A stretch of 64,000 nt of DNA from Thermodesulfobacteriota bacterium (GTDB lineage: Bacteria; Desulfobacterota; Binatia; Bin18): NCBI GenBank assembly GCA_964291405.2, contig OZ219926.1, forward strand, positions 3,840,001-3,904,000, written 5' to 3'. Positions 31,401 through 45,217 of the stretch are shown piece by piece. Positions within the stretch are counted from its first letter, which is position 1. Each line of letters opens with the position of its first letter. Both the position numbers and the translations under genes were made by a program. The notes under the pieces are model-generated. The model did no database searches and had not been told where the DNA came from. It saw only the letters and a list, made by a program, of their open reading frames with translations.

Positions 31401-31698
31401 TGCATTTCTCCAGCAGCACGAACTGCCGGTTGAGATGGTGAATAAAGTCCTGGAAGGCTCCCCGCATATTGTCGATGCCCTCCAGGCAGGCTCGATTGAT
31501 CTGGTCATTAATACGACTGAGGGGGCACAGTCTATCCAGGACTCCTTTTCAATTCGGCGGAGTGCCCTGGAGTGCCAGGTGCCGTATTTTACAACGGTGG
31601 CCGGAGCGGGAGCCGCGGTCGAAGGCATTGCCCGCCTCAAGCAGGGCCTGCTCGGCGTGTGTCCGCTCCAGGCCTATCACGGTGAAGAGCACGGGTAA
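28432..31698 (+). CDS. carB: Carbamoyl-phosphate synthase large subunit
   Basis: MPKRTD start, [20 protein letters not shown], duplicated ATP-grasp domains, MGS domain. Confidence 0.97.
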
Positions 31699-31705
31699 GA
31701 GGGGT

Positions 31706-33928
31706 ATGGTGGTCGGAAAGTCGAAAGGTGGAGGGGCGAAAAGTCGAAAGGTGGATGAAACTCCCCGTCTCTTTGACCGGGCATCCTCCCCACCCCCTCT
31801 TATCAAGGAGGGAGAACCGGCGCGTTCTTTCCGACCGCGCCAGCCGCCGCTCAAAAATTCGGTGCAGTACGTCAAGGGCGTGGGGCCGCGGCGGGCCGCA
31901 CAGTTGGCGCGGTTAGGCATAGAGACGGTCGAAGATCTGCTCTACCACATTCCCTTCCGCTATCAGGATCGGCGCGAAATCAAGAAAATTTGTCATCTTC
32001 AGGTGGGGGATGAGACGGCGGTCACCGGTCAAATCGCCCGTATGGAACGGCGCTTTCTGGCCCGCCGCCGTCGCTGGGTGCTCGAAGCCGTTGTCCGAGA
32101 CGAAACCGGTTTTCTCTTCCTGCTGTGGTATCACCAGCATCGCTATTTTCAGCAGCGCTATCAACTTGGTCAGCAGGTCCTGCTGTACGGCAAGGTCGAG
32201 AAGGGCATGAAGGGCGGCAAGTGGATGATCCACCCGGACATGGAGCCGCTGGAAGAAGAAGACGAGACCGCCCGTGTCTTGCCCATTTACAATAAGACCA
32301 CCGAAATGACGGTGGCTGCCATGCGCCGGGTCGTGCATGGTGCCGTTGACCGCTACGTCGATCAGGTCGCCAACGGCGTGCCACAGGAAATTTGTGATCG
32401 CTTGAACCTGATGCCGCTCAATCACGCCCTGCGGCAGTTGCACTTCCCCCCGCTCGATACTGAGGTTGTTGAACTCAATGAGGCCGCCTCTCAGGCGCAC
32501 CGGGCCGTGGTGTTCGATGAACTCTTTTATTTGCAACTGGGCATGGCCCTGCGCCGGCGCAATACCGTTCGGGAAGAGGGGTTGTCCATTGTGCCGGGAC
32601 CGCTCGTCCAGCAGATATATAGTATCCTGCCGTTTCAATTGACCGCAGCCCAGGAGCGGGTGGTTGAGATGATTTTTCGGGATATGGCGGCTCCCCACCC
32701 CATGAACCGCCTGGTCCAGGGAGATGTTGGCTCGGGCAAGACGATCGTAGCCTTCTTTGCGGCCCTGGCCGCCCTCGATAGCGGCTACCAGGTGGCTTTC
32801 ATGGCTCCGACGGAGCTCTTAGCTGAGCAGCACTACCGGACGCTGACGCCGCTGGCTGAGCAACTCGGCCTGTCCATGACGCTGCTGACCGGAGAAATCC
32901 GCCCGAAACGGAAACAAGAGATCTATGGTCTCCTGGAACGGGGCGAGGTCGAGGTCGCGGTTGGCACGCATGCCCTGATCCAGGAGGGCGTGCGCTTTCG
33001 GCATCTGGGTCTGGCCATCGTGGATGAGCAGCATCGCTTTGGGGTGATGCAGCGCGCCGCCCTGCGAAAACGCGGTGCGAACCCGGACATTCTGCTGCTG
33101 ACCGCAACCCCAATCCCCCGCACTCTGGCCCTGACCCTGTACGGCGACCTGGATGTCTCAGCTATTGATGAACGCCCGCCTGGCCGCAAGCCGATCACGA
33201 CCCATGTGTTCCATGAAGGCGAGCGAAAAAAAGCCTATCATCTCGTCAAAGACCAGCTCGAACGGGGCCATCAAGCCTATGTGGTCTATCCGCTGGTCGA
33301 GGAATCCGAGAAGTCCGACCTCAAGGCTGCGACCTCCATGGCTAAAGAGCTGGCCCAGACTTTCTTTGCCGACTATTCGGTCGGGCTCGTGCATGGCCGC
33401 ATGAAGGGCGGTGAAAAAGAAGCGGTTATGCAGCGCTTCAAGGCTGGCGAGCATCATTTGCTGGTTTCGACTACCGTCATTGAGGTCGGCATTGACGTGC
33501 CGAACGCGACCGTCATGGTGATTGAGCATGCCGAGCGCTTCGGTCTGGCACAGTTGCACCAGTTGCGCGGTCGAGTCGGACGCGGGCAGGCCGCCTCCTC
33601 GTGTTTGCTGCTGGCCCAGTACGCGCCGGGCGACGAGTCCCAGCGGCGTCTTCAGGTCATGACGGAAACCGATGACGGCTTCAAAATTGCCGAAGCTGAC
33701 TTGGCGTTTCGCGGGCCGGGCGAGTTTCTGGGCACACGCCAGTCCGGCATGCCCGACTTCCGGGTGGCCAATATCGTGCGTGACAGCAAACTGCTGGAAA
33801 CCGCGCGAGACGAAGCCCTGACCTGGCTCGAACGTGACCCCAATCTGACCACCCCCGAATCCCGCCGGCTACGCGCCGTCCTCGAAGACCGCTGGGCCGG
33901 CCGGCTGGAACTGGCCAGGGTGGGGTGA
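31706..33928 (+). CDS. recG: ATP-dependent DNA helicase RecG (start uncertain, 31706 or GTG 31751)
   Basis: VKGVGP, QGDVGSGKT, DEQHRFG, TATPIPRT, QLHQLRGRVGRG, RGPGE. Confidence 0.95.
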   Translation: MVVGKSKGGGAKSRKVDETPRLFDRASSPPPLIKEGEPARSFRPRQPPLKNSVQYVKGVGPRRAAQLARLGIETVEDLLYHIPFRYQDRREIKKICHLQVGDETAVTGQIARMERRFLARRRRWVLEAVVRDETGFLFLLWYHQHRYFQQRYQLGQQVLLYGKVEKGMKGGKWMIHPDMEPLEEEDETARVLPIYNKTTEMTVAAMRRVVHGAVDRYVDQVANGVPQEICDRLNLMPLNHALRQLHFPPLDTEVVELNEAASQAHRAVVFDELFYLQLGMALRRRNTVREEGLSIVPGPLVQQIYSILPFQLTAAQERVVEMIFRDMAAPHPMNRLVQGDVGSGKTIVAFFAALAALDSGYQVAFMAPTELLAEQHYRTLTPLAEQLGLSMTLLTGEIRPKRKQEIYGLLERGEVEVAVGTHALIQEGVRFRHLGLAIVDEQHRFGVMQRAALRKRGANPDILLLTATPIPRTLALTLYGDLDVSAIDERPPGRKPITTHVFHEGERKKAYHLVKDQLERGHQAYVVYPLVEESEKSDLKAATSMAKELAQTFFADYSVGLVHGRMKGGEKEAVMQRFKAGEHHLLVSTTVIEVGIDVPNATVMVIEHAERFGLAQLHQLRGRVGRGQAASSCLLLAQYAPGDESQRRLQVMTETDDGFKIAEADLAFRGPGEFLGTRQSGMPDFRVANIVRDSKLLETARDEALTWLERDPNLTTPESRRLRAVLEDRWAGRLELARVG
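31717..31755 (+). repeat. 16-bp direct repeat AAAGTCGAAAGGTGGA x2
   Basis: Exact copies at 31717-31732 and 31740-31755, at the carB-recG junction. Confidence 0.6.
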
Positions 33929-33948: not shown

Positions 33949-34557
33949 TCATTTTTTCGGCTTACCAGGGATCATTTCTAAAGACTCGATATCACGAGTG
34001 TTCAAATACACCCCACCCTGCGTTAAATCTCGTCGGATATGAAGGTCGTTGTCCACGAGATACGCTGGACGGAGGAGGAACTCATGATCTTCAGCCGCAG
34101 GGTCAAAAGAGTATTCCTTTACCCAGCCCAGGTAGAGTACGTCCTGCTTGGTACGAGCGAGTACCCAGAGGTCATCCTTGGGAGCATTGTCAACAACAAC
34201 ATGCCAGATAGCCTGGGGGTCAGGGGTTGGAAAGAAGTCAAGTTTGATACGGAGCCAATGCCCGGCGATAAGAATACCGCCCCAAATAGCCCCTCCACCG
34301 AGTAGAACTGCAATCATCATGGGCTGGATTTCGGAGCCCGAATCTGGGTTTAGGATGTCAGGGTCTTTACAGCCAAGCATATAAGCCGCAGTTGAGAGTC
34401 CTAAAAGTATTAGAAAGCTATGCAGGATGCTCCAGCCAATGGCCTCAAACCGAGACAGGGGCTTGGCCGGGTAGCGCACCCGATAAATCTGCATGGCGAG
34501 GAAACCAGGTAGCAAATAGAGAAGGAGGACGAGGGTATCGCCAAGAGGAATCTTCAT
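33949..34557 (-). CDS. DUF6338-like membrane protein (3 TM helices plus predicted Sm-like beta domain)
   Basis: 202 aa; LLYLLPGFLA first TM, two further hydrophobic segments, then WVLARTKQDVLYLGWVKEYS...FLLRPAYLV...GGVYLNTRDIESLEMI. Family name from recall. Confidence 0.7.
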   Translation of the reverse strand: MKIPLGDTLVLLLYLLPGFLAMQIYRVRYPAKPLSRFEAIGWSILHSFLILLGLSTAAYMLGCKDPDILNPDSGSEIQPMMIAVLLGGGAIWGGILIAGHWLRIKLDFFPTPDPQAIWHVVVDNAPKDDLWVLARTKQDVLYLGWVKEYSFDPAAEDHEFLLRPAYLVDNDLHIRRDLTQGGVYLNTRDIESLEMIPGKPKK

Positions 34558-34598: not shown

Positions 34599-34796
34599 CT
34601 ACGAATCATCATTACCTGTTTTTTGCAGCGTCGCATCCGAGTTATCGCTCCCACTCGGTTGTTGTGAACCCTGGCCACTCGGTTGTTGTGGGTTCTGGAC
34701 TATAACCGGTGGGCTGGAATCTGGATCTTTATTGGTGTGTGTGTACGACCTCAAGAGATCGGGGTTGAAATTGGAATGATCATTGCGCTTCGGCAT
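34599..34796 (-). CDS. 65-aa low-complexity peptide (DLLRSY motif), upstream of the DUF6338-like gene
   Basis: GGAGGT RBS 4 nt before ATG 34796; MPKRNDHSNFNPDLLRSYTHTNKDPDSSPPVIVQNPQQPSGQGSQQPSGS...; internal 16-bp direct repeat encoding QQPSG twice. Confidence 0.65.
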   Translation of the reverse strand: MPKRNDHSNFNPDLLRSYTHTNKDPDSSPPVIVQNPQQPSGQGSQQPSGSDNSDATLQKTGNDDS

Positions 34797-34888
34797 ATTT
34801 ACCTCCAAATAGAAGTTAGTTAGCTAGATTCCTCTTACTATAGACGGACAACCGAATGCAAACTGAGGCATCACCGGATCACCAAGGT

Positions 34889-37800
34889 ATGAACATCAAC
34901 AATACTGTACAGGGCAGTCTGTTTGCCCGCGACTTTCTGACGGAATCCATCTCGCAGTTATCCGACTGGCAGGCTGTTGACGATGCGGCCCTGGACGAAT
35001 TTGAACGCGCGCTGCGGAGTATCTTCGACCCCTTCCCGACCGACCAGACCCCCAACGAGAGCCAGACCGAGGACGATCTGATCTGGCCGGTACTCGAAGC
35101 CTTGGACTGGACGGCCAGCCTGCGCCAGCAGAATCTCTCGTCGCGCGGTCGGGACGACGTGCCCGACGGTTTGCTCTTTGCCGACGAGGCGACCAAGGGC
35201 CGCGCCAACCGTTACCAGCAGGAATGGAGGCGTTACGAGTACGGCTCAGCCGTGGTCGAGTCCAAACGTTGGTAACGTCCGCTTGACCGGCGCTCCGACC
35301 GGCGGGGCGAGGAGACCGCGCCCTCGACCCAGATGTTGCGCTACATGCGACGGGTGGACGACCTGACGAACGGTGCGTTGCGCTGGGGCATGTTGATCAA
35401 TGGAGCCAAGTGGCGGCTGTACTGGGCTGGTGCGCGGTCCGTATCGGAACAGTTCTTCGAGCTTGACTTGGCGGCGGCCCTGAATCTGCCCGGCCATAAC
35501 GACGGCCTGTTCGCGCTGTCCGAGACCGACCGCCGGCACTGCCTCAAGCTGTTTTTGCTCTTCTTCCGGCGTAACGCCTTCCTGTCCGATCCTGCCACCG
35601 CAGATTCGCGCACGCTACACCAGCGCGTTCTCGATGAGGGCCGCGTTTACGAAGAACGGGTGTCCGCTGATTTGTCCGAGTTGGTTTTCAAACAGGTATT
35701 TCCCAAGTTGGCTCGGGCCATTTCCGAAGCTGCCCCGGACGCACCGTTGTCCGAGGTGCGTGACTCGGCCTTGATTCTGCTCTATCGGTTGCTGTTTATC
35801 CTGTATGCCGAAGACCGCGACCTGCTGCCGGTGCGGGATGAGCGCTACGACGATTACGGCCTGCGCGACAAGGTGCGGGGCGACATTGGGCGCCGTAAGA
35901 GCCAGGGCGATACCTTCTCAGCCAGCGCGGCCCGTTATTGGTCAATCATTGACGATCTGTGCCGAGCGATTGACCAAGGCGATACCTCGATTGGCCTGCC
36001 GCCCTATAACGGCGGTCTGTTCGACCGGCAACGCACGCCGCTGCTGACCACCGTCCGGTTGGGTGATGCGGTCATGGCCGACGTGATTGACGCGCTCTCG
36101 TTTGAGGTGACCGACCAGGGCCGGCGCTATATCAACTACCGTGATCTGAGCGTGCAGCAACTCGGTTCAATATACGAACGCCTGCTCGAATACGAAGTCG
36201 TCCGCGACGGCACCGCAATCAACGTGCAGCCTAATGTGTTCGCTCGCAAGGGCTTGGGCAGCTATTACACCCCGGACGATCTCGTAGAGGTGATTCTCAA
36301 GGAGACGGTCGGCCCGTTGGTCGAGTCCTGCACGGAGGCTTTTGCCAAGAGGGTAAGGCGCATTCGTCGGAGTCGCCGCGAGCCGAGCGCCGGACTTGCC
36401 GACCTCAGGCGGCTCGATCCTGCCGAGCGGCTCTTGGAACTGAAAATCTGTGATCCGGCCATGGGTTCCGGGCATTTTCTGGTCAGTCTGGTGGACTATC
36501 TGGCCGACAGCGTAATTGCCGCTCTTGCCGAGGCTCAGGCTACGGTTGAGAACTATGTTTCGCCGTTGACCGAGCGGATTGACGATATTCGCACCACCAT
36601 CCTGCATAATGCCAGCGAACGCGGCTGGACCATAGACGCGGAACAGCTTGACGACCGTCACATCATTCGCCGCATGGTGCTCAAGCGCTGCGTGTACGGC
36701 GTGGACAAAAACCCCATGGCCGTTGAACTGGCCAAGGTGTCGCTGTGGCTGCATACCTTTACCGTAGGGGCACCGCTGAGTTTTCTGGACCACCATTTGC
36801 GCTGCGGCAACAGTCTGTTCGGCTGCTGGGCGCGTCAGGGCATCGAGAAGATGAGTGCCGGTGAACCGGGCTGCGGACGCGGCCAACGCCATGCAGGTTG
36901 TTGAGCATCTGACGGATGCCGAGATTGCCGAGGCCCACCAGTCCGCCCAGACCTTTGCGCAGGTGGAAGCCATGACCGCGCCGCTCGACGCGTTTCTGTC
37001 GCTGCTGCACGCCCTGGACTGGCTGGATATCCGAAATCGTGACGACACGGCTGCGCTGCATGCTTTTTTCGAGGGCCGCCTGGGCGACCCGCTCGATATT
37101 GCACCGGGACAGTGCCCCGTCTCGACCGCCACACCCGACGGCGAACGGTTCGCCGGGCTGTTGGAACGGGCACGCACTCTCATGGCCGAAGAGCGCTTTC
37201 TGAACTGGCAGGCCGCATTTCCCGGTGTGTGGACAAATCTGAAGAATGTGGAGCCGGACGGCGGCTTTGACGCGGTCATCGGCAACCCGCCCTGGGACCG
37301 TATCAAGCTGCAACAGGTCGAATGGTTCGCGGCCCGCCGCCCCGAGATTGCCCTGGCCCAGCGCGCTGCGGACCGCAAGCGTATGATCGCTGCCTTGGAA
37401 AGGGAGGGCGATCCGCTGAGCCGCGATTTTGCCAAGGCGAGCGAACGAGCCGTCGCTGCCACGCGCATGGCGCGGGCGTGTGGCGATTACCCCTTGTTAT
37501 CGCGTGGCGACGTGAATCTCTATTCCCTGTTTGTCGAGCGGGCCATGACGCTGGTTAAGCCGACGGGCATGGTTGGCCTGCTCGTGCCGTCCGGCATTGC
37601 GTCGGACAAGACCGCCGCCGCGTTTTTTCAGGGCGTGGCAACGGAGGGGCGGTTGCGGGCGTTGTACGACTTCGAGAATCGTAGAACCAAGTTCAATGCA
37701 CCGCCGTTTTTCCCGGACGTGGATAGCCGTTTCAAGTTCTGTGCAATCGTGGCCAGCCCGACATCAACCAGCGAGCCTGCCCACTGCGCGTTCTTTTTGC

Positions 37801-38942
37801 AGGATGTCTCCGAACTCAACGACCCGGAGCGGCGTTTCCCGCTGACTGCTGAGGACTTCGCTCGTGTCAATCCGAATACCGGCACCGCACCCATCTTCCG
37901 CACCAGCCGTGACGCCAAGCTAACGACTGCAATCTACGAACGCCTGCCTGTGTTGGTAGATTGCTCTGGTGGCGAGGAAGTCAAGGCGTGGCCGGTACGA
38001 TACTCGACCATGTTTCACATGACGAACGATTCCGGCCTGTTCCGTACACGGGAAGAGTTGGAAGAAGGGGAGGGTGCATGGCCTATTGGTGGCAACCGTT
38101 TTGGTAGCCCAAGTGGGGAATGGGTACCGCTATACGAGGGAAAGATGGTGCAGGCGTTCGATCACCGGGCTGCGAAAGTGGTGGTTAATCCCGAAAATCA
38201 GCATCGACCGGCCCAGCCCGTGCCTGCTACCCTGGAGCAGCACCGAAACCCGGCCTGGTTGCCTGACCCGCAGTTTTGGGTGGCTACATCGGAGTGCGGC
38301 TACTCCCCGGAATCGGGTTGGGTTCTGGGCTTCAAGGAAATCACAGCCCCCACGAATGTCAGGACCTTTATCGCTGCGCTCCTGCCTGCGGTAGGTTTCG
38401 GGAACAAGGTACCAATCCTCAAATCGGAGACGGCGGACCGAACCGAATGGCTGTTGGCCGCCAATCTCAATGCAACGATTTTCGATTTCGCAGTACGGCA
38501 GAAAGTACAAGGCCAGACCTTGAACCTCTTCATCGTCGAACAGCTACCCGTCGTTCCGCCCGACCGCTACAACACCGTCCGTTTCGGCCCCAAGACCGCC
38601 GGCGAGATTGTCCGCGAGGCCGTGTTGGAACTCACCTACACGGCTCACGACATGGCCTCTTTTGCCCGTGACCTGGGCCATATTGATGAGACTGGCGAAG
38701 TAAATCCGCCGTTTGTGTGGGACGAAGAACGCCGGTTGCATCTGCGGGCCAAGCTCGACGCGGTGTTCTTTCATTTGTACGGCGTCACCGACCGCGATGA
38801 CGTGCGCTACATCTATTCCACCTTTCCCATTGTCGAACGCCAGGAAACGGCGACCTATGGCCGCTACCGCTCGCGTGATTTGTGTCTGGCGTGGCTGAAT
38901 GCCTTGGCGGCGGGAGAGCCGGACGCAGAGATTGATTTGTGA
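34889..38942 (+). pseudogene. Type IIG (Eco57I-like) fused restriction endonuclease / N6-adenine methyltransferase, disrupted
   Basis: VPDGLLF...VVESKRW nuclease motif, LILLYRLLFILYAED, YNGGLF, QLGSIYE, GSYYTP, DPAMGSGHFL (motif I), GNPPW (motif IV). In-frame TAA at 35273-35275 and a frame change near 36850 split it into three ORFs. Confidence 0.85.
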
Positions 38943-38973
38943 CGCAAGTGTCTCATGGTATGCTGTGGAACTG

Positions 38974-41900
38974 ATGGGTCATATGCAGGGCTACATCCAA
39001 CTTGATCGGAAATTTCTCGAGTTCGACGAACGGTTACAAGCTGGGGAAAGTGATGACTCTCTGTTTGCGTTTGACCTCTCATCTAAAATAGGGAAGTCCT
39101 GGTCGGACATACTGAAAAATCGTTGTACCGTTATTCTGGCCGAAGCGGGTTCTGGAAAAACTACGGAGTTACGTGCCCAGACGGAGCGTCTTCGTCGCGA
39201 GGGCCAATCGGCTTTTTTTTGCCGACTAGAAATACTGGCTGACGAGTCTTTTGAAGACGCCTTGGAGGCCGACACATCTCAGGATTTCCCGTCGTGGAGA
39301 GATAGCGACGCGCACGGCTATTTCTTCCTCGACTCGGTTGATGAGGCACGGCTTGCCAGTCCCGGCGCTTTTGAGACGGCTGTCATCCATTTCGCCAAAG
39401 TGGTCAGGCACTATATGCACCGCTCAACGGTCGTCATTTCGACTCGTCCCAATGCGTGGCAAGCTCAAGCTGACCCGGACATGCTCAAAAGACGATTAGC
39501 CCTCCCTGAAGAAGTTAAACCGGCAAGCAACGATACAAGGAATTATGATCTCAATAATGGAGGCCGACTTCCCACACGAGGGAGCAAAGGGGCCGAAACT
39601 ACTGGGATGGGGAAAAATTCGTTCGTCATAATGCAGATGTCGCCCTTGAATCAAAGCCAAATACAAATTTTTGCAGAGGCCAAAGGAATAACCGACATCA
39701 CCGCATTTATGGAAGCCATCAACCGCGCAGATGCGGACGTTTTTGCAACTCGGCCGGCGGACCTGCCCGGTCTCATTGATGCTTGGAAAAAGAAGGAACA
39801 CCTCGGGAACTATTCCGAAGTTGTCTTGAAAAATATTGAACTCAAATTGTCGGAAGAGAATCCCGTTCATGGGCCACAAGCCCCACTCTCGCAAGACCGT
39901 GCGCTTGAAGGTGCAAGAGTCCTGGCTGCCGCAGTGACCTTGACGACATGCACGTCAATTCTGCTTCCTGACGATCCTATTGAAGAGACCCTTCGTGAAA
40001 AATGCCTGGACCCTAAAGAAGTTCTGCCAGACTGGCAGTCTGCTGAGATTCGCGCCCTCCTCGGTCGTGCGCTGTTTGAAGAAGCGCTCTACGGTTCCGT
40101 TCGATTTCATCACCGGACCGCACGCGAGTATCTTACGGCATGTTGGTTTAAGAAGTTGCTTTCGCAACAAAAGAATCGCCGCAATATAGAATGCCTGTTC
40201 TTTGCCCGCCCCTATGGCGTCCTCCCCGAAATAGTTGCTCCTTCTCTCAAGCCGGTAGTCGGCTGGCTCGCCGTCTGGGACCCAGGAATTTGTACTCGTA
40301 CCTTGCACACCGACCCGAAAGTTTTGTTGGAATACGGAGACGCTTCGGCACTTGATATCAGGACCCGTGAAACCCTGTTGAGAGATTTTGCAAGCCGTTA
40401 CGAGAACCGTGATGACACTCCACTGAGCCTTCATGTTCGAGAAGTACGCCGTTTGGCGGATCACCGATTAGCCGGGGTCATACGTGATCTTCTCCAAAAA
40501 TATCGCAATCACGGCGACGTCAGAAGACTCTTGCTGCGTATCATTCGAGAAGAACGAATTCCTGATTGCGGGCAACTCGCCCACTCGTTGGCAATTGACC
40601 CCGAAATGGACGTTTACACGCGAAGTACCGCGGTACGGGCGGTCGGCTTGGCCGGAAACCCTGACGAGCAAAAACGGTTAGCCGAGGAAATTCTCGGTCA
40701 AGTTTCCAGTCTGGAGCAAGATATTGTGGGGGCAGCTATTGAAACGCTTTGGCCCAATGCCTTCACAGATCAAGATGTTTTGACGATTCTTGAAAAGACA
40801 CCTGTTCCTGAGCAGTTCGGGGCTGCCGAGTTGAAGTATGCAATCTCGCAAATGCCGGGGCGCATTTCGGACAGGAGCCGAGTCCAAAACCTTCTCGCCG
40901 CTGTGCTCAAACTCGTCTCACAGCCTCCCTGGCACCAAGACGAAATTTGCCGAATCTCGAAAAGATACGACTGGCTAGTAAACCTGCTCTGGGCTTTAGT
41001 GAAAAGGTTTAATTTCTTGCATGGCGCTCCAGAGACCGTTCCTGGGTTTCTATCGGCTATATCTTTGTGTGCTCGGTCCCATCATTATATTCGTCATTAT
41101 AGAGGCGATATGGATGATGAGATTGCTCAACTTCTTCATGGTAATGCCAAAATCAGACATGCGTTGTTCTGGTATAAGTATGAACAAGCCAGACAAGTGG
41201 AAGAGGAGCCTATTACTGATTATCGATTTATTTATGGATTCCCGCGTACAAGTGTCCTGGAGAAAGAGGATAGGGACTATTACCTTCAAGAACTTCGTGA
41301 GCGTTCGGACCCCGTAGAGAGACAGATCGTAATGTCTGTTCTGTTCGGGGTTTATAATGCCAGTAAAGATGTTGTCTTGCGCGAACGCATTAGGGATGCA
41401 GTGAGTGGTGCCCCGGACCTCGTAGCCGAATTCAACCGACTACTCACACCGTCCGCGCCCTCCGAAGCATACCTTGAGGCGCAAAGAGAGATTTCTGAAA
41501 GTCTCTTGCAAAGACAACAACAGGAAATAGAGGATGCCCAAGCACGTCAAGATTGGATTGAAAGATTGAAAGCCGACCCGAGTATGGTCGGCGACCTGTC
41601 CTTAGCTGCTGAGGGACAAGTCTGGAATAATACCTATGGGCTTCTACAGGAGATTGAAGAGAAAACCCATGCAGGTAATCGTCTAACAGCGTCCCAATGG
41701 GAACTTCTCATCCCTGAGTTTGGAGAGATCGTCGCCCAACGGTTCCGCGATTTCTGTCGAGATTTCTGGAGACGCTACACGCCGTCCGTGCGGTCCGAGA
41801 CCGCGGAGGGAAACCAGACGATAGCACCCGCTCTGATTGTTGGTACTAGCGGATTGGCTATGGAGGCCAACGGCGATGAGACATGGGCCGCCCAACTAAC

Positions 41901-43341
41901 CGATAATGAAGCGGAAATTGCGACGAGATACGCGCTTCGGGAACTGAATGATTTTCCAGATTGGTTCCCGGCTCTTCTGCAAGCGAAGCCTGAACCGGTC
42001 AGAAAGATGTTTCGGGAAGAGATTGAGTGGGAATGCAAAGCATTTCCTCCCGATAGCGTCCCACTCTATATTCTGGAAAAACTGCGCAACACCAGACTGC
42101 AAATGGGCAATGATCTGCGGGATGACATTACTGATATTCTGACGACTAAGACGAATATCCTGGTCAAGCCGCTAGAGAATGCTTTGGCTATTGTCCTGAA
42201 AGATTCTACGCTGTTACCCAAAACATTTCGGGATACTGTAGCTCGTCAGGCAGAAGAAGTTTCTTCCGAACAGCAAAAAGTGCTGTGGTTGTCAGCACTA
42301 CTCTGTCTGGATGCCGAGCACGCCCTCGATATCATGGAACCCTGGGTGAACAGTGGGACCAAGTGGGACGGAGAATGTCGAACGTCTCTTATTATCAATC
42401 ATCTCTGGGGACGCGATGCCGGGAGCTTCAATAGCGAACAGTGCAGCTATGAGCAGCTTGGTTGTCTTTCGCGACTGCTGGAAATTGTCCATTCCCATAT
42501 TCGGCTAGAGGAAGATATTGATCATGACGGTGCGTATTCTCCTGACCTCAGGGATAAAGCTCAGGACGCTCGTAGGCACCTCCTTAACTTGCTCTGTAGC
42601 ATTCCGGGAAAACTCACACGCGACACTCTAATTCGACTCTCAGAGTCCTCTCCACTTGAAAATTTCAAAGACCACTTACTCAATCTGGCCGACAGCCGTG
42701 CCGAAGCCGATGCGGATTTCAGCGCGTGGACTCCAAAGCAAGTCGCTGAATTCGGACGTGACGCAGAGCGGAGCCCGGAAACACAGAAGGAGCTTTTTGA
42801 AATTGCTGTGTCCCGCCTTGATGATATTAAGTTTGGTTTTGAAGAGGGTGATGATAGTGAAGCCAGCCTCTGGAGAAAGGCGGAGGATGAGCTTGAGTTG
42901 CGGCGTGCTATCGCGAACCGCTTGATGCTCGTCTCACGTAACAGGTACACAACCGGGTCGGAGGAGGAATTCGCCGATAAGAGTCGTACCGACATCCGTC
43001 TCCATAATCCCAAGGTAGATACGCGGATACCTATCGAAATCAAAATTGCCGGAAAGTGGAGCGCAAACCAGTTGCGCAAGCGCATGGAGAAGCAACTTGT
43101 AGGTCAATATCTCCGTGAAGCCTGTTACGGCGTATTCTTGTTGGTTAATCGGGGTGCGGAGGGTGACAAGAAGTATTGGCGACACCCCAAGAAACTCAGT
43201 TTTTCCACGCTCGTTCAATGGCTGAAAGACGAGAGCAGGACACTGCTGAACGAGCATGTCCAAGATGTAGAGGTAATTGGAATCGATCTGACGCGAAGAA
43301 CCGAGAAGGCTACCCAGAAAGCAAAGGAAGCAGGAGCGTAG
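38974..43341 (+). CDS. NACHT/STAND NTPase with long helical region and C-terminal PD-(D/E)XK nuclease-like domain
   Basis: Walker A VILAEAGSGKTT, Walker B YFFLDSVDE, sensor VISTRP, winged-helix FHHRTAREYLTA; C-terminal EEEFADKSRTDIRL...IPIEIK...QLVGQYL. Start at 38974 or 38983. Confidence 0.82.
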   Translation: MGHMQGYIQLDRKFLEFDERLQAGESDDSLFAFDLSSKIGKSWSDILKNRCTVILAEAGSGKTTELRAQTERLRREGQSAFFCRLEILADESFEDALEADTSQDFPSWRDSDAHGYFFLDSVDEARLASPGAFETAVIHFAKVVRHYMHRSTVVISTRPNAWQAQADPDMLKRRLALPEEVKPASNDTRNYDLNNGGRLPTRGSKGAETTGMGKNSFVIMQMSPLNQSQIQIFAEAKGITDITAFMEAINRADADVFATRPADLPGLIDAWKKKEHLGNYSEVVLKNIELKLSEENPVHGPQAPLSQDRALEGARVLAAAVTLTTCTSILLPDDPIEETLREKCLDPKEVLPDWQSAEIRALLGRALFEEALYGSVRFHHRTAREYLTACWFKKLLSQQKNRRNIECLFFARPYGVLPEIVAPSLKPVVGWLAVWDPGICTRTLHTDPKVLLEYGDASALDIRTRETLLRDFASRYENRDDTPLSLHVREVRRLADHRLAGVIRDLLQKYRNHGDVRRLLLRIIREERIPDCGQLAHSLAIDPEMDVYTRSTAVRAVGLAGNPDEQKRLAEEILGQVSSLEQDIVGAAIETLWPNAFTDQDVLTILEKTPVPEQFGAAELKYAISQMPGRISDRSRVQNLLAAVLKLVSQPPWHQDEICRISKRYDWLVNLLWALVKRFNFLHGAPETVPGFLSAISLCARSHHYIRHYRGDMDDEIAQLLHGNAKIRHALFWYKYEQARQVEEEPITDYRFIYGFPRTSVLEKEDRDYYLQELRERSDPVERQIVMSVLFGVYNASKDVVLRERIRDAVSGAPDLVAEFNRLLTPSAPSEAYLEAQREISESLLQRQQQEIEDAQARQDWIERLKADPSMVGDLSLAAEGQVWNNTYGLLQEIEEKTHAGNRLTASQWELLIPEFGEIVAQRFRDFCRDFWRRYTPSVRSETAEGNQTIAPALIVGTSGLAMEANGDETWAAQLTDNEAEIATRYALRELNDFPDWFPALLQAKPEPVRKMFREEIEWECKAFPPDSVPLYILEKLRNTRLQMGNDLRDDITDILTTKTNILVKPLENALAIVLKDSTLLPKTFRDTVARQAEEVSSEQQKVLWLSALLCLDAEHALDIMEPWVNSGTKWDGECRTSLIINHLWGRDAGSFNSEQCSYEQLGCLSRLLEIVHSHIRLEEDIDHDGAYSPDLRDKAQDARRHLLNLLCSIPGKLTRDTLIRLSESSPLENFKDHLLNLADSRAEADADFSAWTPKQVAEFGRDAERSPETQKELFEIAVSRLDDIKFGFEEGDDSEASLWRKAEDELELRRAIANRLMLVSRNRYTTGSEEEFADKSRTDIRLHNPKVDTRIPIEIKIAGKWSANQLRKRMEKQLVGQYLREACYGVFLLVNRGAEGDKKYWRHPKKLSFSTLVQWLKDESRTLLNEHVQDVEVIGIDLTRRTEKATQKAKEAGA

Positions 43342-43346
43342 ACATT

Positions 43347-43518
43347 ATGCGGAAGGCTAAAATAGATTCCCCTGCGACAAAGGCCGACTTGGCTGTTTTG
43401 GAAGCCCTGCCGTGACGAAGACATTGATACGAGCGATATCCCGAAGGGTACAGACTGGAGCGATGCCGTCCGGGGGAAGTTTTATCGTCCAGTGAAAAAG
43501 AAAAATCGGTCGGATTAG
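43347..43518 (+). pseudogene. BrnA-family antitoxin remnant (frameshifted and truncated)
   Basis: MRKAKIDSPATKADLAVLEALP, then after a 1-nt shift DEDIDTSDIPKGTDWSDAVRGKFYRPVKK, the typical BrnA N-terminus; the C-terminal RHH segment is missing. Confidence 0.75.
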
Positions 43519-43538
43519 CGTAGCGTAATCCGACCGAT
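43505..43538. repeat. REP-like palindrome
   Basis: ATCGGTCGGATTA-gcgtagcg-TAATCCGACCGAT, perfect 13-bp arms. Confidence 0.75.
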
Positions 43539-43621
43539 ACGGTCCGTCCGAACATGTCGGGTGACGAGACAGTGTGAAAGTGAGAGGGGTGTTCTCATTG
43601 CTGCCGGAGAAATCAGAACAA

Positions 43622-43651
43622 TAGAATTTTGGCCTTAGAATTTTGGCCTTA
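43622..43651 (+). repeat. 14-bp tandem duplication TAGAATTTTGGCCT x2 in a putative promoter
   Basis: Exact adjacent copies at 43622-43635 and 43636-43649, ending ~22 bp before the peptide ATG at 43672. Confidence 0.7.
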
Positions 43652-43671
43652 CAATCCTCAGGGGGAAACCA

Positions 43672-43836
43672 ATGCGCAAGAATAATACATCTGCGGCTCC
43701 GCGTCCGTCCAACAAACAGAAGAAAAACGGCCTTCGGGTCGATTTCTCTCGCGGCTATCAACCTGTGGCGACCGAGCAGTCTCCAAAAAAACCGCCCACC
43801 AATCCGCCAAATCAAGGCACCGCCGGAAAGAAATGA
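43672..43836 (+). CDS. 54-aa basic Pro-rich peptide (DFSRGYQP motif)
   Basis: Below the ORF-track size cutoff. AGGGGG RBS-like sequence, ATG 43672, MRKNNTSAAPRPSNKQKKNGLRVDFSRGYQPVATEQSPKKPPTNPPNQGTAGKK, TGA 43834-43836. Confidence 0.65.
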   Translation: MRKNNTSAAPRPSNKQKKNGLRVDFSRGYQPVATEQSPKKPPTNPPNQGTAGKK

Positions 43837-43907
43837 CCTCGTGGGCGGATTCTTGCTTGCTGCCTATCGCTGTCGGCTGTCGAGGCCTGGATACCGCCCC
43901 CAGCAAT

Positions 43908-43936
43908 TTGACCGGTTTCGGTAAATCCCCTATATC
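43908..43936 (+). promoter_or_regulatory. Possible sigma70 promoter for the alaC-hom-thrC operon
   Basis: TTGACC-N17-TATATC, about 65 bp upstream of the ATG. Confidence 0.35.
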
Positions 43937-44002
43937 CTTAGCAGGAATTGAGGCCCTCGCGGAGATAAGCTGAACGGCCTGTCTTCCAAGAGGTGAGACA
44001 AC

Positions 44003-45217
44003 ATGGAATTCCCACGTATTAAACGGCTTCCGCCCTACCTCTTTGCCACCCTGGACAAGATGAAAATGGAGGCACGCTGGGCGGGGGAGGATATTATTGA
44101 TTTTGGGATGGGCAATCCCGACCACCCTTCTCCGCAACACGTTGTGGAGAAGTTGGTTGAGGCCGCGGCCAAGCCACAGAATCACCGTTATTCAACCTCA
44201 CGGGGGCTCTATAAGCTGCGTCTGGCGATTTGCGACTGGTATAAACGCCGCTTTGAAGTGGAGCTCGATCCCGATTCCGAATCCATTGTGACCATTGGGT
44301 CGAAAGAGGGCCTCTCCCATCTGGCGCTGTCGATTCTCGGTCCGGGTGATGTGGCCATCTGCCCGAGTCCGACCTATCCCATTCACCAGTATTCAATTGT
44401 GATGGCCAACGCCGATTTGCGGGTCGTTCCGCTCCGACCGGGGGAAGATTTCTTTACCTCGCTTCAGGAAACGGTCCAGCAGTGTTGGCCGCGGCCCAAG
44501 GTCCTGCTGCTGTGTTTTCCGCATAATCCGACAACGGCTGTTGTAGACCTTGAATTTTTTACGCGCGTCGTAGAATTCGCCCACGAGCATAAGTTGTTTG
44601 TCATTCACGACTTTGCCTACGCCGACCTCTTTTTTGACGGCTATACACCGCCGAGTTTCCTCCAGGTGCCTGGCGCAAAAGAGATCGGCGTCGAGTTTTT
44701 TACCCTGTCGAAATCCTACGATATGCCGGGTTGGCGGGTGGGCTTTGCCTGCGGTAATCCAGAGGCGATCATGGCCCTGGGTCGGCTCAAAAGCTATTTT
44801 GACTACGGTATTTTCCAGCCTATTCAAATCGCCGCGATTCATGCTCTGAACGGTCCCCAGGACTGCGTGGAAGACATGCGCCGGCGCTATCGTCTCCGCC
44901 GCGATGTCCTGATTGACGGCTTGGAGCGGATAGGCTGGCATATCCCCAAACCCAAAGGCACGATGTTCGTCTGGGCGCAAATCCCGGAGCCCCTGCGGGC
45001 CATGGGCTCCATGGCTTTTGCGGAATTTCTCCTGACGGAAGCCAAAGTCGCGGTATCCCCAGGGGTCGGTTTTGGGCCGTATGGAGAAGACTACGTCCGC
45101 TTTGCCTTGATTGAGAATGAGCATCGGACCCGGCAGGCCGTTCGCGGTATCCGTAAAGCCTTTGGCGGTGCCAGCGCTCCGGCCGAGCCGGCGGATAAAA
45201 AGCTTCGGGCGGTATAA
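44003..45217 (+). CDS. alaC: PLP-dependent class I/II aminotransferase, AlaC type
   Basis: [59 protein letters not shown]. Confidence 0.85.

Follow-up and report, generated by a model that had tools for sequence, protein, structure and literature searches.

We analysed two small open reading frames (ORFs) in a 64,000-nucleotide (nt) stretch of a Thermodesulfobacteriota genome (contig OZ219926.1, positions 3,840,001 to 3,904,000), hereafter called the window, whose first letter is position 1 in the coordinates given below. Both ORFs lie in a variable locus that is bounded by recG and an aminotransferase gene and whose cargo varies between genomes. They probably represent two genuine small-protein families, each constantly associated with a single DUF6338 clade, with a whole pair on the left of the locus and a relic of such a pair on the right. 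An earlier inspection of the letters (the sequence-only reading) had described both ORFs as pointing outward, and this is indeed what we observe, together with the stretches DLLRSY and DFSRGY, the PP tracts and the NP..QG[ST] tails that it had reported. The genes that carry the argument are the following, with lengths in amino acids (aa).

33949..34557, minus strand: intact DUF6338 gene, 202 aa (Pfam PF19865), convergent with the end of recG
34599..34796, minus strand: left peptide gene, 65 aa from its ATG, SFTHT family, with a gap of 41 nt to the DUF6338 gene downstream of it (34557)
43576..43685, plus strand: DUF6338 stub, the last 31 codons (residues 175-205 of 205), identified by tblastn, by translation and by blastn against the related genome G017
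43672..43836, plus strand: right peptide gene, 54 aa, GYQP family, overlapping the end of the stub by 14 nt

Small proline-rich proteins beside DUF6338 genes

Within the genus, PF19865 occurs at 12 places in 10 of 28 genomes, and at ten of these 12 places a same-strand ORF of 51-64 aa begins at or over the stop codon of the DUF6338 gene. These downstream ORFs are of several types, namely the GYQP type, a type reading ...YRESFEP...PPPPPPPRPKK, and two others. The PPPPPPPRPKK type is found in G004, in G023 and at the second locus of the window genome. DUF6338 is rare in a sample of the phylum (7 of 401 genomes), where the downstream peptide recurs at five of the six loci other than that of the window, in some cases containing two or three G-Y-Q-P units. 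More generally, a G-[YH]-Q-P unit is repeated 2-4 times in some peptides.

A scan of metagenomes with the commoner DUF6338 clade gave 209 relatives, and 80 loci were kept, of which 74 were usable in that they run through the stop codon and for 150 nt or more past it. A small ORF with G[YHFW][QKRV]P or G[YF]Q, starting between -45 and +100 nt from the stop codon, is present in 63 of the 74, whereas 23 of the 1482 remaining small ORFs at these loci carry the motif (Fisher p 9e-81). The sequence-only reading had linked GYQP...PP peptides to neighbouring DUF6338 genes, and this link is confirmed by these loci as well as by those of the genus. Most peptide starts overlap the DUF6338 stop by 4-20 nt in the metagenome loci, which points to coupled translation of DUF6338 and the peptide. 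Among the 11 loci that miss the motif, six still show related proline-rich peptides.

One locus of G041 (L043, 1082-1484) has two tandem peptide genes after a single DUF6338 gene, a truncated copy of 30 aa and a full copy of 54 aa, recalling the three tandem peptides of Pseudomonas stutzeri described below.

Conservation of the two peptides

The right ORF (43672-43836) encodes 54 aa and is preceded, 5 nt upstream, by GGGGGA. Against a hidden Markov model (HMM) of five relatives, built without it, the right peptide scores 59.9 bits, and none of 300 shuffles scores as high. It carries the two marks of its family, a G-Y-Q-P core and a PPxNPP...GKK tail. Clear matches occur in six genomes of the genus among the 40 relatives searched, the nearest being that of G017 with 96% identity. 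Those genus relatives that have a start codon comprise 55-65 codons and show strong Shine-Dalgarno sites, and the copy in G015 is a remnant with no start. A profile search of 5.8 billion proteins extended the family to 45 relatives of 49-68 aa, which have no Pfam domain and no name beyond "hypothetical protein". The consensus of the family is MSKNNKP..., followed by G-Y-Q-P and SPxKPP[ST]NPPN[KQ]G[ST]SGKK.

Compared with the G017 copy, the 54 codons of the right ORF show six synonymous and two non-synonymous differences, corresponding to a ratio of non-synonymous to synonymous change (pN/pS) of 0.10. The probability of at least six synonymous differences out of eight under neutrality is 0.003. 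These comparisons indicate that the right peptide is a genuine conserved gene, with coding constraint shown against G017. A sequence search of the PDB with the right family pointed to 8pjs_A, in which no stretch passes alone, and this match was taken as compositional.

The left ORF extends from 34599 to 34808 on the minus strand when read from a TTG start. The likelier start is the ATG at 34796, which has GGAGG 5 nt upstream and gives the peptide of 65 aa. Its score against an HMM of 16 relatives, again built without the peptide itself, is 38.2 bits, which none of 300 shuffles attains. By alignment, the core of this second family, SFTHT, is [DE]-[FL]-x-[RK]-S-[FY]-T-H-T-[NR]-P-x-P...PP, and the left peptide has the defining [RKQ]-S-[FY]-T-H-T followed by P-x-P...PP. 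The two ORFs are present as the sequence-only reading had described them, and each is a conserved gene.

Relatives of the left peptide are difficult to retrieve by pairwise methods. Translated similarity searches with it found nothing below E 0.07 in the 40 relatives and missed a true relative in G007, which was recognised by reading the locus directly. At this orthologous locus, whose DUF6338 protein is 54% identical, the upstream ORF has a Shine-Dalgarno site and shares S-[YF]-T-H-T-N...SPP, and a distant locus, L064, has K-S-I-T-H in its upstream ORF. A HMMER search of a library of 1.84 billion proteins with the left peptide gave two matches, one of which, P0001, is 86% identical. The other, a protein of 1677 aa with nine matched stretches, was taken as low complexity.

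A genome scan with an alignment of the left-type DUF6338 clade yielded 18 loci, including two places already known (L048 and L064). They comprise four from Nitrospirales/Nitrospira, three from Binatia, three from Gammaproteobacteria, seven of Acidobacteriota type and one from another bacterium, and their database labels span four phylum-level groups. In all 18, an ORF with S[FYIL][TSI]H[TFE] ends 0-91 nt before the DUF6338 start, and in 17 it has a start codon and a Shine-Dalgarno site. In a quick tree, which sampled 22 of the 80 metagenome loci (chosen by hand from those whose upstream flank is complete), the 16 DUF6338 proteins that have an upstream peptide form one side of a branch with a support of 99 in the Shimodaira-Hasegawa-like approximate likelihood ratio test. 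In this tree the upstream peptide type is confined to that one clade, and its gene order is opposite to that of the commoner type. The left DUF6338 protein falls within this clade and is 54-63% identical to those of ten upstream-type loci. The left peptide gene lies just upstream of it on the same strand, so that the pair is whole, with the peptide first and the DUF6338 gene after it. To judge from these sequences, the left peptide is a conserved gene whose cognate partner, lying downstream of it, is the DUF6338 gene at 33949-34557.

Both ORFs are short and biased in composition, neither peptide has a match in Pfam, NCBIfam, PADLOC or PHROGs, and a conserved promoter-like block lies directly downstream of the right ORF. 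These features would fit chance ORFs, the right one merely belonging to the conserved stretch that precedes the aminotransferase gene, the left one being an open frame of low complexity. We nevertheless find this explanation highly improbable, as the frames stay open and keep Shine-Dalgarno sites in dozens of diverged relatives, the lengths differ by whole codons, silent changes are in excess, and the HMM scores lie far above those of shuffles. The class of protein was moreover detected by mass spectrometry in another species.

Relationship between the two peptides

The sequence-only reading had placed both peptides in one family on account of a shared D-[LF]-x-R-[SG]-Y core. This core is literally present in both, but the likeness of the two peptides lies within chance, since their Smith-Waterman score is 26 compared to a shuffle mean of 29.2 (z -0.59, p 0.745) and the PP tract is the sole aligned stretch. 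The core is not a family feature either: the residues immediately before G-Y vary across the right-peptide relatives, and the D, [LF] and R are not conserved among them.

Comparison of whole families leads to a similar picture. Aligned with hhalign, the left and right families give probabilities of 0.24% (13 versus 17 sequences), 0.29% (7 versus 17) and 0.34% (108 versus 17), with E values of 0.17-0.25. Of 60 column shuffles, 2 attain the score of 10.3 obtained with 108 versus 17 sequences, and the alignment consists of the PP tracts only. With the left-family HMM the right peptide obtains 5.4 bits, a score that 3 of 300 shuffles reach, and the corresponding numbers are 3, 4 and 7 of 300 for the copies of G001, G041 and G017. 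The remaining nine of the 13 right-type peptides score no better than shuffles. In the other direction, no left-family member (n = 17) falls below 16 of 300 shuffles with the right-family HMM. Cross-recognition is thus marginal one way (4 of 13) and absent the other way, and neither the two peptides nor their profiles show a likeness beyond composition.

We also considered that the two peptides might descend, with divergence, from one ancestral partner gene that switched sides of DUF6338. Their partners are homologous, both DUF6338 clades matching PF19865, and the peptides have a common layout of polar N-terminus, core with a small residue and an aromatic one, proline tract and polar tail. The marginal scores of the right peptide and of the G001, G041 and G017 copies with the left-family HMM point the same way, as does one left-family member with VDFSRSF where the right peptide has VDFSRGY, some members reading D-F-x-R-S-[FY]. 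A common origin nevertheless appears unlikely in view of a pairwise score below the shuffle mean, null results for nine of 13 right-type peptides and all 17 left members, hhalign probabilities far below 1% that come from PP tracts, the opposite gene order, and the restriction of the upstream type to one clade. The two peptides, with no significant cross-similarity, are best assigned to separate families on separate DUF6338 clades, which departs from the earlier assignment to one family. The shared [RK]-[GS]-[YF] core may reflect functional convergence or a very old kinship.

Loss of the right-hand DUF6338 gene

In G017, G001, G006 and G041, the order of genes is recG, restriction-modification gene, DUF6338, peptide, aminotransferase gene, and in G015 it is recG, peptide remnant, aminotransferase gene. 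In the window, the DUF6338 partner of the right peptide has lost its first 174 codons, and hyoA and a broken brnA occupy its place. Indeed, tblastn with the G017 DUF6338 protein gives two matches, one covering residues 175-194 (43576-43635, 90% identity) and the other residues 187-205 (43626-43682). A tandem duplication of 14 nt (43623-43650) displaces the second piece relative to the first and creates an in-frame TAG stop at 43636-43638. Homology to G017 in blastn begins at 43577, and the contigs of two public runs branch at this same position into sequence that continues the DUF6338 gene. One public-run contig lacks the 14-nt duplication. The junction of the window is bridged with no difference by one contig of run X1, which may be the source sample; it is bridged in X1 only, the other run, X2, showing no cover at 43386-43447 and 43541-43571.

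Because synteny, stub and breakpoint at 43577 agree, the right peptide is an orphan, the relic of a truncated DUF6338 gene, and has kept its own ribosome-binding site. It has no intact DUF6338 partner, and the 14-nt overlap with the end of the stub is the same geometry as in G017. The suggestion of the sequence-only reading that the right copy marks a lost DUF6338 partner is therefore confirmed, the last 31 codons remaining in the window and the gene being intact in G017, G001, G006 and G041.

Such orphans recur in the genus. An intact peptide ORF stands beside a truncated or frameshifted DUF6338 gene in five cases (the window, G005, G011, L042 and G023), and all ten intact DUF6338 genes of the genus have a peptide. 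L042 lies in the window's own genome (contig C3, 2954773-2955204), where the DUF6338 gene is frameshifted at about residues 146-170 and the downstream proline-rich ORF of 51 aa is intact. At the loci L006 and L007, of G005 and G011, the GYQP peptide is accompanied by a DUF6338 remnant about 20 codons long and lies between a gene for a pentapeptide-repeat protein of 456 aa and a PIN-domain gene; here too the cargo was exchanged and the peptide remained.

The sequence-only reading had also raised the idea that the orphan right peptide acts in trans, as a second specificity, a decoy or an antitoxin; its target would be the intact left DUF6338 protein or something else. The ORF is undamaged, as are its Shine-Dalgarno site and the 3' stub carrying them, G005 and G011 likewise retain stubs of about 20 codons, and intact orphans recur within the genus. 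On the other side, the two peptide families go with different DUF6338 clades, the window genome has no intact DUF6338 of the clade that matches the right peptide, and there is no plus-strand promoter-like site between the hairpin at 43505-43538 and the peptide. A small target size and a recent event suffice to account for the retention of the ORF, and we regard action in trans as improbable.

Structure prediction for DUF6338

The left DUF6338 protein matches PF19865 with E 3e-15 and 56.8 bits, compared with a gathering cut-off of 26.5, over model positions 8-202 of 205. Scans of Pfam, NCBIfam and PADLOC gave no family beyond DUF6338, and there was no PHROGs match. Sequence searches of the PDB with DUF6338 found no relative of a solved structure.

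A model of the left protein made from 16 sequences (predicted local distance difference test 76.5) shows three long helices at residues 7-28, 36-60 and 79-105, a short helix, and six strands. Its residues 125-202 resemble the Sm/LSm fold, with Z up to 7.9 and a root-mean-square deviation of 2.2-2.7 Å over 60-66 residues, and entries of the Sm/LSm/Hfq type make up most of the 50 fold matches listed. Among the Foldseek matches listed, all are Sm/LSm except the decapping-complex entry 6am0, and the best E value is 0.0036. The model thus depicts DUF6338, which is about 200 aa long, as three membrane helices joined to a small beta domain of Sm-like type.

Other features of the locus

The remaining features of the locus are as follows.

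31469-33928, plus strand: recG, left border of the region
34856..38942, plus strand: type IIG restriction-modification or DrmMI-like gene (PADLOC, Pfam), a core common to the variable locus
38899..43341, plus strand: hyoA-like NACHT antiphage gene, 1480 aa (NCBIfam NF058534, antiphage_HyoA)
43347-43518, plus strand: frameshifted remnant of a BrnA-type antitoxin gene, related to an intact gene of G006
43505-43538: perfect 13-bp hairpin with an 8-nt loop and an A-run alongside
43908-43936, plus strand: candidate core promoter, TTGACC-17 nt-TATATC, in a block near-identical in G017 and G041
44003-45217, plus strand: aminotransferase gene (Pfam Aminotran_1_2)

The type IIG gene, which also occurs in G017, G001, G006, G041 and G007, matches REase_MTase_IIG and DrmMI in PADLOC, with E values down to 1e-71, and Eco57I and MmeI_Mtase in Pfam. 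In the window it consists of three reading-frame pieces, 34856-35275, 35333-36904 and 36855-38942 (139, 523 and 695 aa). Real frameshifts and assembly errors are both conceivable, and the first two pieces look fused in G007. The hyoA gene has a full-length match to antiphage_HyoA in NCBIfam, with 1357.7 bits (cut-off 1200), and is recognised by neither Pfam nor PADLOC. It is absent from this locus in the six related loci compared, the window alone carrying it, and a literature search for HyoA/EruA gave unrelated papers only.

About 330 bases with no long ORF separate hyoA from the right peptide ORF. They hold the brnA remnant, whose N-terminal part stops at 43415 and whose remainder (DEDIDTSDIP...) lies in another frame; its intact relative in G006 matches BrnA_antitoxin in Pfam with E 5.5e-16, and no brnT partner of the remnant was seen. 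The hairpin at 43505-43538 has the look of a repeat element present in many copies, as the contig depth of that bin rises abruptly to about 1090 in run X2 and contigs branch there.

Downstream of the right peptide, the TTGACC/TATATC block is likely to be a core promoter just upstream of the aminotransferase gene, which accounts for the apparent conservation of a 46-aa ORF at 43833-43973. Scans for tRNA genes and Rfam families found nothing in or near either peptide ORF, and the sole Rfam match within the window is a PyrR binding site (RF00515, 24267-24385, plus strand, 58.7 bits). The direct repeats around the region are short and imperfect only, none being convincing as an insertion scar.

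Strength of the evidence and possible function

Several observations weigh against the view that two families of small proteins are the fixed companions of DUF6338 and that the right copy is a relic. Five of the 74 metagenome loci (L087, L105, L109, L113 and L116) have no recognisable peptide, and the motif used for counting was composed after the data had been inspected, although the contrast between 63 of 74 and 23 of 1482 is too large for this to matter. Most of the silent divergence between the window and G017 may predate the loss of the partner, so that the pN/pS of the right ORF is not proof of continuing selection on the orphan. The lack of a plus-strand promoter-like site between the hairpin and the right peptide counts here as well. 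The asymmetric decay of peptide and DUF6338 gene is a small count among kindred genomes, and an ORF of 165 nt is a smaller mutational target than a gene of 618 nt. Finally, the fold match is middling, as Z values below 8 are common for unrelated models and no Foldseek E value reaches 0.001.

As for what such a pair might do, one reading that we offer tentatively, as possible though doubtful, has three steps. The peptide and DUF6338 would be produced together through translational coupling; the aromatic core and the proline tract of the peptide would bind the predicted Sm-like domain; and the peptide would restrain or regulate an oligomeric membrane assembly in the manner of an antitoxin. Restraint of this kind would explain why peptides outlive their partners.

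A more elaborate version, which we hold to be distinctly unlikely, is a two-gene membrane switch. DUF6338 would form an MscS-like ring through its Sm-like domain, held shut by a short-lived proline-rich peptide that is hard to translate. When translation falters, for instance during takeover by a phage, the peptide would be exhausted and the membrane breached. Orphans such as the right peptide would then be leftover antidotes that might also blunt incoming cassettes of the same type.

A different possibility is that the peptides are exported or modified, as proline-rich antimicrobials or as precursors of ribosomally synthesized and post-translationally modified peptides, with DUF6338 serving as an immunity, export or processing protein. 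PMC10433244 raises antimicrobial roles for small proline-rich proteins and places DUF6338 also in biosynthetic gene clusters, and the two to four G-[YH]-Q-P repeats of some peptides would be in keeping with this. Such a role appears quite improbable, given that in the window the interval from recG to the aminotransferase gene encodes no modifying enzyme, protease or exporter, that the peptides have no hydrophobic leader, and that the cassette is merely two genes in most loci.

PADLOC gives no match for DUF6338 or the peptides. Strong PADLOC matches lie within about 8 kb of 5 of 12 DUF6338 loci compared with 4 of 8 control loci (Fisher p 1.0, a comparison that has no power), and we accordingly claim no defence role for the DUF6338 cassette. 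At one locus of the distant genome G109 (L171, 8032-8661), DUF6338 and a GYQP peptide lie between HmaA and HmaB, of the Hma-type defence, with HmaC and a TIR-domain gene further along.

Implications

DUF6338 is a widespread uncharacterised membrane-protein family, for which a near-constant small proline-rich partner is now shown. At least two conserved and unnamed families supply this partner, their gene orders are opposite, and the small proteins persist after the membrane protein has been lost. DUF6338 can thus be approached as a two-component system open to direct study, and the two families enlarge the limited set of conserved small proteins known from bacteria, a class that gene-calling programs mostly overlook. 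In annotation, the right ORF should be called as a gene and the 110 bases before it as a gene remnant.

Comparison with known systems

The modelled residues 125-202 of DUF6338 share their fold with Sm/LSm/Hfq proteins such as SmAP1 (1loj), Lsm4 (4emh) and the LSm domain of EDC3 (2vc8), but show no sequence similarity to them, and in DUF6338 the domain is fused to three membrane helices. The LSm domains of EDC3 and LSm14 bind short linear peptide motifs rather than RNA. The subunit of MscS, which forms a heptamer, has three membrane helices followed by an Sm-like beta domain, the same order of parts as in the DUF6338 model. Nevertheless, MscS is not among the fold matches listed, and DUF6338 lacks its C-terminal alpha-beta domain.

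A full-text literature search by the names DUF6338 or PF19865 turned up only one study (PMC10433244), a digest-free proteomic analysis of Pseudomonas stutzeri. It reports that a DUF6338 gene is immediately followed by genes for three proline-rich proteins (36-47 aa), which were detected abundantly, with 44-114 spectra and 98-100% coverage, and the DUF6338 gene adjoins a gene for an OLD-family nuclease. In its passages on them, these small proteins are treated as a species-specific curiosity. The operon, in strain ATCC 14405, has the arrangement seen here, with DUF6338 followed by same-strand ORFs for small basic proline-rich proteins that have a proline run and end in KK, and the tails of these proteins resemble the PPPPPPPRPKK type of G004, G023 and the second locus of the window genome. 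The present case differs from that operon in that there are two conserved families, GYQP downstream and SFTHT upstream, and in that the right copy has no partner.

The arrangement as a whole resembles that of type II toxin-antitoxin systems. DUF6338 is set apart from these by being a membrane protein with a predicted Sm-like domain that matches no other family in the Pfam, NCBIfam and PADLOC scans. The two have in common small co-oriented genes that often overlap, the occurrence of both gene orders, one small disordered-like partner, a patchy distribution as accessory cargo in variable loci, and the survival of the small partner when the larger gene decays. Indeed, the DUF6338 genes and their peptide genes are adjacent and co-oriented, with overlaps of 4-20 nt in most loci, and five intact orphans are found in the genus.

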